Origin: Eledone cirrhosa
Taxonomy: Eukaryota
Assembly (NCBI GenBank): GCA_964016885.1
Contig: OZ024742.1
Span: 52,948,001-53,012,000, forward strand
Length of the DNA stretch: 64,000 nucleotides
Direction of reading: 5' to 3'
Positions 10,180 to 34,090 of the stretch are shown piece after piece. Every line of letters begins with the position of its first letter. Position 1 is the stretch's first letter. Both the position numbers and the translations under genes were made by a program. Below the pieces are notes generated by a model. That model worked only from the letters and a program-made list of their open reading frames with translations, searched no databases and was not told where the DNA came from.

Positions 10180-10222
10180 ATCACCTACGTACGTTTCGCC
10201 CAGTTGGGCTTCTCAAGGGCAT
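10180..10222 (-). ncRNA. Minimal hammerhead motif, U3:A8 core (second copy at 12925-12967, + strand)
   Basis: TTGAGAA-GCCC-aact-GGGC-GAAA-CGTACG-TA-GG. Stem III ACGTACGT is palindromic; stem I is short and imperfect. Confidence 0.6.
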
Positions 10223-10514
10223 AAATAATCACAAGTGTTCCTTATATTGCTCGGAAAGAGTTTTTGGGGTTAAATCCACATCAAGGTTCATTGCTCGCAA
10301 AAATATTTTGTTTTGATTTTGCAGCAGGTCAAGGGAGATAACTCTGGCCGGTGTTAGGGCAGTCTTTCCCGGACAAATTTTTTTTTTTTTTTTTTGCCGC
10401 ATCCGTTTGTCTGAGGCTGGGTCTGGTATGCAAGGATTGTTTCCTGGGTGTTATTTTGCAGCGCCTGCCCGCCGGGGTGTTAAGACTTGTTGCAGGGACA
10501 TCCAGTGTACTATT

Positions 10515-12910
10515 TCACTCTTCATCCTTAACCCATCTGAAGAAGGATATTTTTAAGCGATGTGTACAACTTATCGCTGTTTCAGCTCTGCTGTTGATGA
10601 GCTCGTGGGGTGCAGTTATGATGTGGTAGAGCTCCATGAGGCAAAGATCGCATTTCCTCTTGAAGTTGTACGGTGCAGCCCTGCCGACAATCTCCCAGTG
10701 CGTGGAGAAGCTGATGTTTAAGTCCTTTAGTGATGTGATGTAGTCCGCGAGCGAAGTGGAGTGCCTTAGTTTTCTATTTGTGAAAGAGTGGAGATGTGTT
10801 CGAAACCTAATTTTGAACGGGCCGGAGGTGGCCCCTATATAATGTTTAACGCTATTGTGGCTAGTAATAGTGCATCTATATATAACCCTATCAGTCAAGC
10901 AGTATCCTCTAAGGGGGCAGCGTCCTCTGTCGCAGCAGTTGCAATTTCTGTCGCGGTTCCGTCTATTTCCCACGGTAAGGCTATCATTGTTGCTGCCTAC
11001 GTTGTTACCTACGCTACCGCAGCTGTCGTTAGCATAATTACAACCCACAGCACGCGGGGTGGTGCGATTGTTATTCCGCACGTCATGTTCTGCATGTTCT
11101 CCAGTCATTTCGCGTTCATTCTGGTTGCGTCTGCGGATGCCGTTGCCAACACTATTGGATGCTGCCAGGGAGTTGTTAAGGCCGATATAGTTATTGTCAG
11201 GTGTAGGTGCGTCTGTGTCGAGGTGCTGTGTCTTGGTGATCTTACTGTGGTTCGTTGTTCCTATGATGTCTGCTAGGTTAGGAGTAGTAGAGAAGGATAT
11301 TTTTATATTGTTCCTATTAAGAATTTTTCTATACCTATGGTTGGGCGGGAAGTTCTTCTCTAAGGCTTCGAAGAACATCCGGGGTATGTTGGAGGCCACA
11401 CTCCGAGAGTAGGGGGGGTGGAACCATAGGACGTTACGGTGGCGATTACGTGTCCTTGTACTTTTGCTACGGGTGGTTCCATCTAAGTGACCGCTCTTAT
11501 GTGTGTTAATGCGCAGTCGCCTGTTCGGTGCCCCTTTCACTTTATGCTCGGGTGCACTCTTTCTACCTCTTCCATGTTTATGTACACGAAGATGTTGGTT
11601 GGAAGGCGTTGGTAGTAGGCCGTCGCCTTTGTTGGTTTTGTAATAGGGGAATAGTTTGAGTAATCTACAGTGTTCACCGTCGCCGGGGACGTGATCTTTG
11701 GTGCGGTTATCTATTCTATTATATCCGACTTCAACGAGGTCGCCGTGTGATCGGTTATAGGTATGGCTTACTATAACGTTAGTTTTATGAGGGGGTGGTT
11801 TCTAGAGCTAGCGTTAGGGATGTAGGAAATTCCTCGGTTAAAGCCGGCGCTTATCAGGGCCCTATTGTAGTAATCAGCCGGTTGGTTGAAGATATCCTCA
11901 TTGGCGGATAGCCTCGAGATTCTATGTGAGATACTATAGACTATGGAGTTGAGAGTCTGCTTAGGATGGTTGGAAGCATAATTAATATAAGAGAGGCACT
12001 CTCCAGGCTTATGGTATGGCTTGTATAAGCCCGTACTCAACTCCAGGGTCACGTCCAGGAAGTTGACAACCCTGTGGTTGAGGTCCATAGTTACGGATAG
12101 GCCGTATGACTTAAAGAACCTGTGTATGTTTGTTAAGGTTCTCTATCCTACGGGGGCTATGGTTCCTAACGGTAAACAGGGCGTCGTCCCTATATACACC
12201 TCCTTGTAGGGCCGGTATTTCTTCCCTAAGCTTATGTAGGAGGTATATCCCGACCAGGTCAGTTGCTTGCGCTGAGTCACTGGACCCCATCGTGACATCG
12301 AAGTTATCAGGACGGTTGGTTCTGGTCCAGTGGGAGCCTTCGAACTGGATAATGGTTCTACGTGCCGCTAGAATTATGTCTATTTCTTTTTTAGTGAGGC
12401 TAGTGTTAGATCTAGCTAAGATAAGTGCCTTATTTAAGAGTATGGGGGAGATAGAGGCGTAGTAGCTATCTATATCAAACTGGATGAATTTCAGGGTGGC
12501 TTTATCCGGCAACTCGGTGAACCAATTTATGACCTGGTCGGTGTTGCCCCAGAGGCAGACCTTAGCCTTTCTATTAAGCTCGAGTAGTACTCTGTCGAGG
12601 ATCACTTTACTAATCTTACTTATATCTGCTGTAGATGGGCATATTAGTCTAATAGAGGGGCTTTCATTAAATTCATATTTGTGATCCTTAAGAGAGAATT
12701 TAGGCGTCAGAGGGACGTACGGGTTAGTGTACTTTTCTATTTCTAAGCTGGTGACTATATCCTTCCCTACTCTATTTATGTCATTTAGGGTACTAGAGGG
12801 TGTCTTTTTGTAGTCTTTGTGTAGTTCCTTATAGATGAATTTTTTATACTCACTCGCGTCCATCTTGTACAGCTTTTTGGTTTTGTCGGAGGTGACGAAG
12901 AGGTGCGGGT
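10515..12910 (-). pseudogene. Frameshifted PLE RT + GIY-YIG endonuclease ORF
   Basis: Three collinear ORF fragments in different frames cover the RT palm, the thumb and the GIY-YIG domain. Confidence 0.9.
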
Positions 12911-13100
12911 CATTGTGATTATTTATGCACTTGAGAAGCCCAACTGGGCGAAACGTACGTAGGTGATATTTTAAATAAACATGTTTTAACGGTCTATTCT
13001 CCGATTTTTAACTTTCCCACGTGCTTACGCTCTGCTAACTCTCTAGCCCACTAAATATTAACACTTCGTATATATATATATATATATATATATATATATA

Positions 13101-31580: not shown

Positions 31581-31674
31581 ACCCCGACAGCTGAGCTCAA
31601 GCCGTTTCGACGGCTAATTCTGGACTAAATGAAAATTTATCCTGGTATTTAAATAGCCGATCTTCTCAAGGGGT
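31581..31674 (-). ncRNA. Hammerhead ribozyme, U3:A8 variant (inverted pLTR copy)
   Basis: Reverse complement of 33997-34090. Confidence 0.8.
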
Positions 31675-33996
31675 AATTCCATATATGGTCAAAGTGATTG
31701 TCAAAAATCAGTAGTAATTCTGTGGTTGCAAATTAATAGGGGAGATGGTGGCTAAACCTGCCAGTAGGAGAAAGAGGGGAGGGGGTGGAGTAGACCCAAT
31801 CAAGCGTTGGTAGTGCCAGCTACAGCTGGGCATGAGGTCAAAGAAGATACAGGGGAGGGGGAGGGGGAGGAAGTCGGCACGGTAGGTAGAACAATGGGGG
31901 GTAGAAATAGGAAAGAAATCGAAAACGACCTGTACTACCCATACAGGAAACCTAATGACAATCTGCACTACATCCACCGCCGATCAAACCATCCTAGGAA
32001 CATCACAAACAACCTGGTCAAAAACATCTCCCTCCGCATATCCCGTTTGTCAGCTAATGAGCGGATATTCGATGAACATGCGCCTTATTACAACCAGGCC
32101 CTCAAGCGGAGTGGTTTCCGGGAGGAAATATCCTACTGTCCAGCTCCCATTAGCGGAACCAGCAGGAGACACCGCCGCTCACCCAATGTAACATGGTTCA
32201 ATCCTCCCCACAACGCAGAGGTGACAACTCCCATCGGGAAACTATTCTTTAGGCTCATTGAAAAACACTTCCCATTACAACACCGCTACCACAACATAAT
32301 TAACAAAAATACCATCAAACTCTCTCACAGCACTACACCAAATTTCGCACAAAACATCGTCTCCTCTAACAACAAAAAACTCAACCCCGATGGCAGAAAT
32401 AACCTAAATAGCAGTGGAGAACCGACCAGGAGGTGTAACTGCCCGGATAGATCTATTTTCCCACTCGACAATAGATGCAGAGACCGTAATGTGATCTACC
32501 AGTGCAACGTGAGGACGGATACCTCCAACAAAGCCTATATAGGACTTACCGCATGTGACTTCAAGACCCGGCTATACCAACATAGACATACCTTCCGAAA
32601 CCCGGCCCGGCGTCACGCCACTACACTTTCGGGCCACATATGGGACCTCAAGGACAACAACATCACCTATGATCTCACTTGGAGATTACTGTCCAGAGCC
32701 AATTCTTACACGGGAGGACGCCGTCCGTGCAATTTATGCTCGGAGGAAACTTTACAAATGCTGTTCTCGACGGACCAACTCCTAAACAAGAAAGATGAAC
32801 TGGTCACTGCATGTAAACATAGATTGCGTAGGACTTACCTCGCCCTCAAACCCCATAATGACCCGGGGGGGTAGACTAGGGCTATAACACCCCACTTACC
32901 GATTTTGCAATGGGTAACCCCTGCTTGCCAAGGAAGACGTAAGATCTTCTTTGTATTCTTTTATCGCTTCCTTTATTTCCTTCCCCCCTCTCTCCTTAGT
33001 CCTTCTACCCCAGCTCTTCTCCTTTGTCGGCGTCTTTTCTCGCCCACCCGAGGCTGCCCTTTGGCCCCATGTAGCCTTAGTACCCCCACCACCCCCTCCC
33101 CTAGTCTATGATAGATTTGGCGGACTCCGCCCTTTATAGCAGTTGGCTTAGACCCCGGATACTTGCCCCCTTTTTCCGACCACTCCCACTATTCTCTGTG
33201 CCCTCTATATTTCTTAGTGGCACTTATGCCTTATTTTTTCGTTTCAGTATTTCTTGCTTCGCTTTTCTTCTGGGCGGGGTGGATTCTGAATTTATTTCTC
33301 CGTATTCTACCTTTATTTCGTACGAACTTTCATGTAGCTTGTTTTAGATCTTTTAGAGTTAGCATTAGTATATATTTTTCTCGGTACTCAGAATTATTAT
33401 CTCGTACAAGTTCACTTTGCTGCACTGGGTCGTTGCTGGCCCGGGATGGAAACCTTTATTGTTTATTTCGTGGTAGTCTCTTTAGTATTTTGGCCCCTTT
33501 TGTTGACCCGTCACCGTATCATTTACGTACTTATACCTCTTAAAAGGGTCCTTGCCTATCCGTCCCACCTAGTTCTTTTACTTATTTCGTTATTTCCTTA
33601 TTTATTTATTTCTTTACTTCTTTCTTTCTTTCTTTATTTTATTCTGCCTAACAATAGCCTGAGACCTAGGTCGTAGTATTTAATTTACTTTACTTTTTTC
33701 TTTACACTTATTTGCTTTTCTTCACTCTCAGTATTTTTTTTTTTTTTTTTTTTTTTTTTCCTATTTCTACCCCCCATTGTTCTACCTACCGTTCCGACTT
33801 CCTCCCCCTCCCCCTCCCCTGTATCTTCTTTGACCTCATGCCCAGCTGTAGCTGGCACTACCAACGCTTGATTGGGGCTACTCCACCCCCTCCCCTCTTT
33901 CTCCTACTGGCAGGTTTAGCCACCATCTCCCCTACTAATTTGCAACGACAGAATTACTACTGATTTTTGACAATCACTTTGACCATATATGGAATT

Positions 33997-34090
33997 ACCC
34001 CTTGAGAAGATCGGCTATTTAAATACCAGGATAAATTTTCATTTAGTCCAGAATTAGCCGTCGAAACGGCTTGAGCTCAGCTGTCGGGGT
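33997..34090 (+). ncRNA. Hammerhead ribozyme, U3:A8 variant
   Basis: ACCCC-TTGAGAA-GAtCGGCTA...TAGCCGTC-GAAA-CGGC-ttgagctca-GCTG-TC-GGGGT. All three stems are present. Confidence 0.82.

Follow-up and report, generated by a model that had tools for sequence, protein, structure and literature searches.

The question raised by this locus is whether the heptamer TTGAGAA, which occurs in it as two inverted pairs, can serve as the core of a hammerhead ribozyme, and what kind of element carries it. The window analyzed here is a stretch of 64,000 nucleotides (64 kb) of the Eledone cirrhosa genome. One pair, belonging to element family A, lies at 10210-10216 (minus strand) and 12931-12937 (plus strand), the other, of family B, at 31663-31669 (minus) and 34002-34008 (plus). 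An earlier note on this DNA had placed the heptamer directly before stem II and GAAA in both elements. We found this arrangement at all four sites, and apart from the motif the two families are unlike each other. We consider it probable that A and B are head-to-head Hydra-clade Penelope-like retrotransposons in (TA)n and that their 3' type I hammerhead-shaped motif with U3/A8 is, as predicted, self-cleaving, at GUC/G in B and likely at GUA/G in A (the slash in a cleavage site marks the predicted cut).

A hammerhead-shaped motif in the arms of family B

The motif in the right (direct) arm of family B was delimited at 33997..34090 on the plus strand by the sequence and the minimum-free-energy fold. 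Its layout is ACCCC-TTGAGAA-GA(T)CGGCT...AGCCGTC-GAAA-CGGCT-TGAGCTC-AGCTG-TC/GGGGT. Stem I (33997-34001 paired with 34086-34090) encloses the core UUGAGAA (34002-34008), stem II (34009-34016 paired with 34056-34062; one U is bulged, and the loop spans about 40 nt), GAAA (34063-34066), stem III (34067-34071 paired with 34079-34083, loop UGAGCUC at 34072-34078) and U16.1 C17 (34084-34085). Since GTC occupies 34083-34085, the predicted cut falls at 34085/34086 (GTC/GGGG), in agreement with the position proposed earlier. The long stem II with its large loop, the palindromic stem III loop TGAGCTCA and the 4-bp stem II of family A were likewise as the earlier note had described them. The minimum-free-energy fold was exactly the type I hammerhead junction of three helices, helix I being open, in which the seven core bases, GAA and C17 were unpaired; the folding energy itself was ordinary (z -0.64).

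In the left (inverted) arm, the motif is located at 31581..31674 on the minus strand, with the core at 31669-31663 and the predicted cut at 31586/31585. The two arms have different 3' ends. The right arm continues from the predicted cut (G+1) into a "tail" of 100 nt that ends in ...CGTTAT and is followed by (TA)n (34086..34185, plus strand), and the left arm carries just the first 18 nt of this tail (31585-31568), its short end at 31568 adjoining (TA)n. Between the arms lies a 5'-truncated open frame on the plus strand (31768..32874) for the end of a reverse transcriptase, a CxCX5C linker and a GIY-YIG nuclease. It is 98% identical to the full-length copy L031, which has an open frame of 786 codons in a unit of 3,118 bp. 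A query of the own genome with the protein returned family B copies of 99-100% identity throughout (150 scored of 64,544 candidates).

A 20-mer of family B matched six times in the window (four exact matches, two with 2-3 mismatches; none expected), and of 2,147 genome matches the first 100 listed all had TTGAGAA as the core. In most copies the motif is without its 5' half (26 of 30 sampled). Two head-to-head mini-dimers are also present in the window. The first, at 13100..13300, joins family B 3' ends, with the long tail on the left and the short end on the right; both arms end inside the stem II loop and hence neither has TTGAGAA. The second, at 16790..16955, belongs to a B-like subfamily and its arms join at GTCGAAAC.

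Family A and a minimal form of the motif

Family A has the layout gccc-TTGAGAA-GCCC-aact-GGGC-GAAA-CGTACGTA/GG. The minimal hammerhead-shaped motif is found at 10185..10220 on the minus strand, the same strand as its open frame, and consists of CC (10218-10217), the core UUGAGAA (10216-10210), stem II of GCCC and GGGC (4 bp, 10209-10198), GAAA (10197-10194), ACGUACGU (10194-10187) and A17 (10186), with the predicted cut at 10186/10185. An inverted, 5'-truncated arm at 12914..13068 (plus strand) has its core at 12931-12937 and its predicted cut at 12961/12962, and ends in (TA)n. The coding region (10515..13007, minus strand) is broken into three frames and comprises a reverse transcriptase (DKT, YRDD), the CxCX5C linker and, at the C-terminus, a GIY-YIG nuclease. 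By tblastn, identity between the A and B proteins is 44% for the reverse transcriptase and 30-36% for the nuclease. The family A 20-mer GAAGCCCAACTGGGCGAAAC occurs twice in the window, with none expected, and the TTGAGAA state was present in 23 of 30 sampled copies, so that in both families the heptamer is the usual state.

Stem I of family A has two contiguous pairs, and helix III has either two pairs with a GUAC loop or is built from an 8-nt palindrome. This sequence would be compatible only with a minimal hammerhead form that has a palindromic helix III, and its stem I is weak. The minimum-energy structures of families A, C and D did not recover the hammerhead, and in cofolding of two copies (A or C) the best structure was without an intermolecular helix III.

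Two further families and the common core

Two more families with U3:A8, C and D, were found in the same genome. Family C has the layout cctt-TTGAAAA-gcag..ctgc-GAAA-ccggta/aagg; its 21-mer gave 13,904 genome matches, and the core TTGAAAA was present in 32 of 32 sampled copies. For family D (agct-TTGATAA-gtac..gtac-GAAA-cagagctctgtc/agct), a 24-mer gave 672 genome matches, with the core in 10 of 12 copies and the other two broken off inside or before it. Short tandem arrays (320 nt) of family D were found as well. Overall, copy numbers in this genome reach the thousands or tens of thousands.

The stems of the four families are unrelated, and the invariant features are U3 U4 G5 A6 A8 A9, the G10.1-C11.1 pair, GAAA and U16.1-H17. 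Position 7 is the sole free core position (G in A and B, A in C, U in D). Compared with the CUGANGA box, the cores UUGAGAA (A and B), UUGAAAA (C) and UUGAUAA (D) fit at five of seven positions and differ at 3 and 8, where all four families have U and A, which could pair in Watson-Crick fashion. The GAAA box (G12 A13 A14 A15.1) after stem II and the G10.1-C11.1 closing pair are present in all four. The cleavage-site triplet is GUC in B and D and GUA in A and C, in line with the U16.1 H17 rule. All four families have a palindromic helix III or loop III, and the full motif lies at the same place in these Penelope-type elements, tens of bases upstream of the 3' end. Stems I and II are short in A, C and D.

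If these motifs are active, U3 and A8 would form the pair that canonical hammerheads make between C3 and G8, and the element RNA would cut itself in vivo at the motif. Family B may act as a monomer through its 6-bp stem III, and family A might need a partner copy, with helix III formed from the ACGUACGU palindrome.

Fragment ends and variation of the core

We collected family B fragments in which sequence of A and T only came within 4 nt of GGTCTTAC and counted the rows by hand (n=45). Thirty of them start exactly at G+1 (G34086); the others have one extra G (4), start at C17 or U16.1 (7) or at G+3 (2), or are variant rows (2). All 20 fetched fragments stood alone between (TA)n flanks; 13 were 100 nt long and 7 were 18 nt long. 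In the same type of test, neighboring positions had far fewer fragments each, with 39 across -11..-1 and 52 across +2..+12, where 26 rows of one tandem array were set aside. The starts at G34086 lend indirect support to a putative RNA end at this position. The same test on family A gave seven matches and no peak. One head-to-head junction of family A, listed on both strands, lies exactly at G+1. For a control family with the canonical core (65 matches), the ends could not be read because the bases near the cut are A and T and merge with the flank.

Across the B group, each of the four bases occurs at position 7, and of 5,340 matches the first 100 listed all have A8. A subfamily with C3 and A8, which form no Watson-Crick pair, was counted 8 times among 30 sampled copies and 10 times among the first 100 listed, and has spread as head-to-head insertions. 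Thus, of the earlier claim on the 3:8 pair, the occurrence of U3/A8 in both families stands, and a strict pairing constraint is weakened. The tail type of this subfamily started at G+1 as often as the U3 type (8 of 12 versus 8 of 20), so that the mismatch is tolerated or else the G+1 ends have an origin other than cleavage. No compensation was found in stem II of the B group, since 10.2 varies (A, U, C) and 11.2 stays U. Contigs of X19 carried T>C at 34002 (24% of the summed depth), with no listed change at 34007; the contigs of X19, X22 and X24 give variant letters only.

These data bear on an alternative of some weight, which we judge unlikely. It holds that the motif derives from a hammerhead with weak or dispensable catalysis, that its RNA structure is kept for recognition, pausing or template switching by the reverse transcriptase, and that the G+1 ends mark a stop of the enzyme where helix III begins at its base, or a transcription start. 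The spread of the C3/A8 subfamily with its frequent G+1 starts fits this explanation. Furthermore, most 5' ends of family B lie in the region of the stem II loop, so that the structure clearly influences where copying stops, and copies bearing a pseudo-LTR, such as L031, must have come from RNA templates uncut at the motif. Low in vitro cleavage is published for Penelope-element hammerheads (PMC4209133, in its account of these motifs), and Craig et al. 2021 (PMC8557442) call hammerhead function in such elements unclear in their discussion of it. This alternative is difficult to reconcile with the one-nucleotide peak, as 30 fragments start at G+1 versus 7 at C17/U16.1 and at most 2 each at G+2 and G+3, and the peak coincides with the predicted scissile bond. 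The fixation of six core positions and GAAA over four unalignable families, with drift at position 7, is moreover the pattern of a catalytic core and not of a mere hairpin. We favor self-cleavage, as predicted for the motif, over this alternative.

Motif searches

At the gathering score, Rfam gave no hammerhead match in the 64 kb, and at E ≤10 no hammerhead family was among the 41 and 27 matches. The expectation that standard hammerhead models miss A and B was thus borne out. Motifs with a canonical core at 9790-9852 and 16690-16735 likewise went unreported at gathering, so that this test is weak for short motifs of the Penelope type. Our own descriptor missed family A because stem I has just two contiguous pairs.

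That the hammerhead likeness arose by chance in an A/T-rich genome is very improbable: the heptamer alone is not enriched (14 matches in the window versus 9.7 expected, with 10 of 100 shuffles reaching 14), a loose descriptor gave 10 U:A matches in 343 kb of reversed, uncomplemented control and all six U:A matches in 400 kb of random genome were one satellite, but the full motif stands at the same 3' place in four separate Penelope-type families, the minimum-energy fold of family B is the junction itself, and a stricter descriptor gave no U:A match in 400 kb of reversed control.

Assignment of the elements

In both A and B, the reverse transcriptase is followed by a C-terminal GIY-YIG nuclease, and this order is found in a single frame in L031. 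Marks read by eye were HSDKTG, CNCPDRSIC, CNLCSEE and CKH in family B and SDKTK, CNCCDRGRC, CDLC and CTH in family A. The Hydra clade is described in PMC8557442 by a C-terminal nuclease, DKT instead of DKG, a CxCX5C linker, CxxC and CxH around conserved E and N, and (TA)n targets. We set the proteins against this text description and not against an alignment. The description further includes an RWK motif and the lack of a CCHH motif; family B has RWR in the position corresponding to RWK. Insertion in (TA)n was seen for A and B, the B unit being 3.1 kb. Pfam recognized neither a reverse transcriptase nor a GIY-YIG domain in the A and B proteins. As a lead, some members of the nearest Atlas clusters carry GIY-YIG and RVT_1. 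Together, the protein marks, the (TA)n targets and the unit size match the published description of the Hydra clade, to which A and B probably belong. Downstream of 78 nuclease ends in fetched loci, 11 regions were read by eye; canonical cores were present behind two distant Hydra-like nucleases (L020 and L129), and the other nine showed no clear motif.

The label "Naiad-type" given to the elements earlier had to be abandoned. If they were Naiads, the motif would be a real novelty, the missing hammerhead of that clade. Like A and B, Naiads insert into (TA)n, have tails and occur as inverted or tandem units, and the passages on the clade in Craig et al. 2021 report no canonical hammerhead. Their defining features there are, however, a GIY-YIG nuclease at the N-terminus, a CxC motif, DKA and an insertion-in-fingers domain. 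We found none of these in A and B, whose C-terminal nuclease, DKT and CxCX5C linker are of the Hydra type, and the Naiad assignment has hardly any probability left.

Discussion

The U3:A8 core is not new to Penelope elements. Cervera and de la Pena 2014 (PMC4209133) describe hammerheads of Schistosoma mansoni with "U3-A8 instead of C3-G8" (about 1,300 matches), so that the possible novelty raised in the earlier note does not hold and the present case is a further example of a known phenomenon. As features of Penelope-element hammerheads, that study names a palindromic helix or loop III and a conserved G10.1-C11.1. As far as the published description goes, the Cercyon pseudo-LTR motifs of that species resemble ours in the U3-A8 swap, the kind of element, the place in the pseudo-LTR, the palindromic helix or loop III, G10.1-C11.1 and the thousands of mostly solitary or inverted copies. 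They differ in the host and the Penelope clade, and family B, with its 6-bp stem III and very long stem II, is not "minimal". The present analysis contributes two further U3:A8 families (about 13,900 and 672 marker copies), the pattern at positions 3, 7 and 8 in the B group and the fragment starts at G34086.

Hydra-clade hammerheads (Craig et al. 2021, PMC8557442, File S2) share with A and B the protein marks, (TA)n, the size and a type I motif that precedes the 3' end by tens of bases, and their short stems I and II are also seen in A, C and D. In contrast, all 28 rows of File S2 have ctgaNga where ttgaNaa is found here, and the stem II loop of family B is far longer than in any entry. The tandem arrays of family D resemble non-LTR retrozymes with type I hammerheads, whose repeats are thought to be mobilized by Penelope elements, according to the accounts in PMC7229834 and 10.64898/2026.07.22.740005; a canonical core is reported for those, and A and B, in contrast to such short repeats, are autonomous and contain open frames.

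Searches based on CUGANGA as well as Rfam models miss these U3:A8 motifs, so that element catalogues would list such families as lacking a ribozyme. The published Hydra-clade list has canonical cores only. We propose, tentatively, that a radiation of Hydra-clade Penelope elements and short riders in this genome may run on the U3:A8 core, with copies in the tens of thousands from four or more families, and that the 18-nt and 100-nt pieces flanked by (TA)n, whose first base is the one after the predicted scissile bond, are possibly fossils of self-cleaved RNA. If this is true, the genome sequence alone would read out hammerhead cutting in vivo in a retrotransposon, and families with U3:A8, the C3/A8 mismatch and canonical C3:G8 would form a natural mutant series side by side, in which the mismatch seems not to abolish cutting. 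The presence of these versions in related elements offers a ready set for testing the weight of the 3:8 pair in its natural context. Should RNA data confirm the fragments that begin at the predicted cut, these would bear on the purpose of the ribozyme in Penelope elements.

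The TTGAGAA motif and its predicted fold

C3 pairs with G8 in Watson-Crick fashion in the full-length hammerhead structure, and hammerheads remain active when both positions are changed to U3/A8. Taken alone, the heptamer TTGAGAA is uninformative, since the window contains 14 matches and 9.7 are expected by shuffling. Two inverted pairs, made up of four of these matches, lie near the 3' ends of two Penelope-type element families, one at 10210-10216 (-) and 12931-12937 (+) in family A and the other at 31663-31669 (-) and 34002-34008 (+) in family B. The corresponding 20-base contexts occur two and six times in the window, respectively, compared to 0 expected. 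With a slash for the predicted cut, the motif reads gccc-TTGAGAA-GCCC-aact-GGGC-GAAA-CGTACGTA/GG in family A and ACCCC-TTGAGAA-GA(T)CGGCT-(about 40 nt)-AGCCGTC-GAAA-CGGCT-TGAGCTC-AGCTG-TC/GGGGT in family B. These pairs confirm the earlier note, which had described a hammerhead-shaped TTGAGAA motif in both elements and whose positions proved correct, as did its predicted cut at 34085/34086.

The hammerhead reading of these motifs is well supported for family B, where the minimum-energy structure of 33994-34096 folded alone is a type I hammerhead junction. It comprises a 5-bp stem I, the seven core bases unpaired, stem II, an unpaired GAA and a 6-bp stem III with the loop UGAGCUC, and C17, just before the predicted cut, is unpaired. 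The folding energy is ordinary (-23.2 kcal/mol, z -0.64). The family B motif is predicted to be self-cleaving. For family A the hammerhead reading is reasonable, although the case is weaker. No hammerhead junction was recovered when it was folded. Stem I of family A has two contiguous pairs, and helix III closes a GUAC loop with A-U and C-G, or is equivalently the 8-nt palindrome ACGUACGU. It has the architecture that Cervera and de la Pena (2014; PMC4209133) call "minimal" in hammerheads of Penelope elements, for which a dimeric mode of action has been proposed.

Standard searches miss both motifs, as had been anticipated: Rfam gave no hammerhead match here at any threshold tried. This silence says little, since Rfam at the gathering score also left unreported two canonical-core (CTGATGA) hammerhead-shaped motifs that belong to other repeat families in the window, at 9790-9852 (+), which adjoins a (TA)n tract, and at 16690-16735 (-).

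Abundance and constancy of the core

TTGAGAA proved to be kept within both families. A context pattern for the 5' half of family B had 2,147 genome matches, and CTTGAGAA was present in all of the first 100 listed. For family A, a 28-mer marker gave 1,274 exact matches, with GCCCTTGAGAA in 23 of 30 sampled copies and single differences or truncation in the other seven. A 30-mer marker for the 3' half of family B matched the genome exactly 10,183 times; TTGAGAA was reached in 4 of 30 sampled copies, the remainder being tiny head-to-head dimers ending in the stem II loop. The two arms meet within or just before this loop in the great majority of B copies (for example, window 13100-13300 and 16790-16955, and the fetched loci L001-L030), suggesting that copying of family B usually ends or switches strand at the stem II hairpin. 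Copies of the family B nuclease share 99-100% identity and in many cases lie in long open frames, which indicates a young family.

When positions 3, 7, 8 and 10.2 were left free, the B-group pattern had 5,340 matches. Among the first 100 listed, A8 was present in all 100, position 7 was occupied by all four bases, and position 3 was U in 90 and C in 10. A subfamily with CTGAGAA, in which C3 faces A8, made up 8 of 30 sampled copies (one CTGAAAA included); it was found as paired insertions and has thus spread after gaining C3. In contigs of a deep DNA run, T>C at 34002 accounted for 24% of the summed depth, and 34007 had no listed change. Within stem II, subfamilies differ at position 10.2 (A, U or C) while 11.2 stays U, so this pair is not maintained. 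Stem III showed a one-sided change only, from G-U to G-C at 15.3-16.3.

Fragments starting at the predicted cut

If the RNA were cut at GUC/G, copies of the downstream piece would start exactly at G+1, the base 3' of the predicted cut (G34086 in family B). The genome was searched for B sequence with only A/T within 4 nt upstream of GGTCTTAC, and 45 places were found (rows counted by hand). The start was exactly G+1 at 30 places, G+1 plus one extra G at 4, C17 or U16.1 (the bases just before the predicted cut) at 7 and G+3 at 2; the other 2 were variants. All of the 20 inspected G+1 pieces were free-standing with (TA)n on both sides, thirteen of them corresponding to the 100-nt tail between the predicted cut and (TA)n (34086-34185 (+)) and seven to its first 18 nt. 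Starts at -11 to -1 amounted to 39 places, 7 at C17 included, and starts at +2 to +12 to 52 places, about a third of which were inverted junctions by a rough eye count. The latter number is without 26 rows of one tandem array on contig 27. Since each neighbouring position holds far fewer starts, G+1 is enriched roughly ten-fold, and the peak falls on the predicted scissile bond.

Molecules with an end at G+1 have thus been copied. That end may come from cleavage, from reverse transcriptase stopping at the foot of helix III or from transcription starting at G+1. Among B-like subfamilies, G+1 starts were found at 8 of 20 places with the tail type linked to U3 and at 8 of 12 with the tail type linked to C3/A8, a link that held in 6 of 6 C3 copies with that tail. 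Either RNA with the mismatch is still cut in vivo, or these ends have a source other than cutting. The G+1 test of family A yielded 7 places and no peak, and a canonical-core family taken as control could not be read, since its cut site itself consists of A/T.

Two small hairpins, CTCAA-gta-TTGAG and GGTG...CACC, lie within the 100-nt tail, and GGTTCCT is repeated at the short-end site and near the long-end site. On contig 27 (~12.94-14.60 Mb), a truncated B tail starting GGTTCC occurs 26 times with identical flanks and a spacing of largely ~5 kb, consistent with one insertion that was subsequently multiplied in tandem.

Other families with the same core

Our own descriptor (stem I, NUGANNA, stem II, GAAA, helix III, UH, stem I), applied to the fetched loci, revealed two further families, C and D, not selected for beforehand. 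Family C reads cctt-TTGAAAA-gcag-aagaa-ctgc-GAAA-ccggta/aagg; its 21-mer has 13,904 genome matches, and TTGAAAA was present in 32 of 32 sampled copies. Like A and B, it inserts into (TA)n, head-to-head plus tail. Family D reads agct-TTGATAA-gtac-caaaaaa-gtac-GAAA-cagagctctgtc/agct and has the core TTGATAA in 10 of 12 sampled copies. Some of its 672 24-mer matches are arranged in direct tandem repeats of 320 nt (contig C1 of genome G000, 114379865-114380528 and 229929238-229929581), and these U3:A8 arrays resemble non-LTR retrozymes described in other animals. The stems of the four families are unrelated to one another. Constant over all of them are U3, U4, G5, A6, A8, A9, G10.1-C11.1, GAAA and U16.1-H17, with position 7 as the sole free core position (G, G, A and U in A, B, C and D).

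Canonical motifs are far commoner than U3:A8 in this genome. In 400 kb taken at fixed intervals the descriptor found 21 C3:G8 motifs, compared to 1 in the reversed control, and 6 U:A matches, all from one satellite. Canonical cores lie behind two distant Hydra-like nucleases, at loci L020 and L129.

Element structure and clade

Elements A and B each consist of a 5'-truncated copy and a short inverted copy, head to head, with both outer ends in (TA)n and a 3' tail that is longer on one arm. The minus-strand frames of family A encode, in order, a reverse transcriptase (DKT, YRDD), a CxCX5C linker and a GIY-YIG nuclease, and family B has the same domain order. L031, a full-length copy of B from another part of the genome, contains a 786-codon open frame with the marks HSDKTG, RWR, CNCPDRSIC, CNLC..E and CKH, and a 3,118-bp unit between two direct motif copies. 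In the text of Craig et al. 2021 (PMC8557442), Naiads are marked by a nuclease at the N-terminus together with CxC and DKA motifs; the Hydra clade has a C-terminal nuclease, DKT, the CxCX5C linker, CxxC and CxH motifs, short length and (TA)n targets. By these marks, compared by eye with that text and not by a tree, families A and B are Hydra-type. The label "Naiad-type" in the earlier note was wrong, and a Naiad identity was rejected on the C-terminal nuclease and DKT.

Two other Hydra-like Penelope open frames are present in the window, at 47996-50394 (+), with 37-44% identity to B and 53-58% to A reverse-transcriptase pieces, and at 34530-35937 (-), with 35-60% identity to B over three shorter stretches. 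No hammerhead motif was found behind either frame; their 3' regions are interrupted or short. At L013:2335-2870, a nuclease with only 37-39% identity to A and B precedes a near-identical copy of the family B 3' module with GAAA, stem III, cut site and 100-nt tail; TTGAGAA and the stem II 5' strand are absent from it. Either the insertion is chimeric or families have this 3' module in common.

Pfam recognised nothing in the family A and B proteins. The nearest protein-atlas clusters, as a lead only, are ~700-residue invertebrate proteins with GIY-YIG and RVT_1 on part of their members. At L031:3280-5436, a very abundant, young element encodes reverse transcriptase plus GIY-YIG nuclease in an open frame of 719 residues, and no Pfam family matched this protein at E values up to 1. 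Routine domain annotation effectively overlooks such proteins.

Relation to published hammerheads

The earlier note had left open whether the U3:A8 core was already catalogued. The swap is in print for Penelope elements: Cervera and de la Pena (2014; PMC4209133) reported U3-A8 instead of C3-G8 in hammerheads of such elements in Schistosoma mansoni, with about 1,300 matches. For the Hydra clade, a full-text literature search outside the subscription journals found no paper reporting U3-A8, and all 28 Hydra-clade hammerhead rows in File S2 of Craig et al. 2021 are ctgaNga, whereas families A-D are ttgaNaa. What the present analysis adds is a census of the core, a subfamily with C3/A8 and the fragments starting at G+1.
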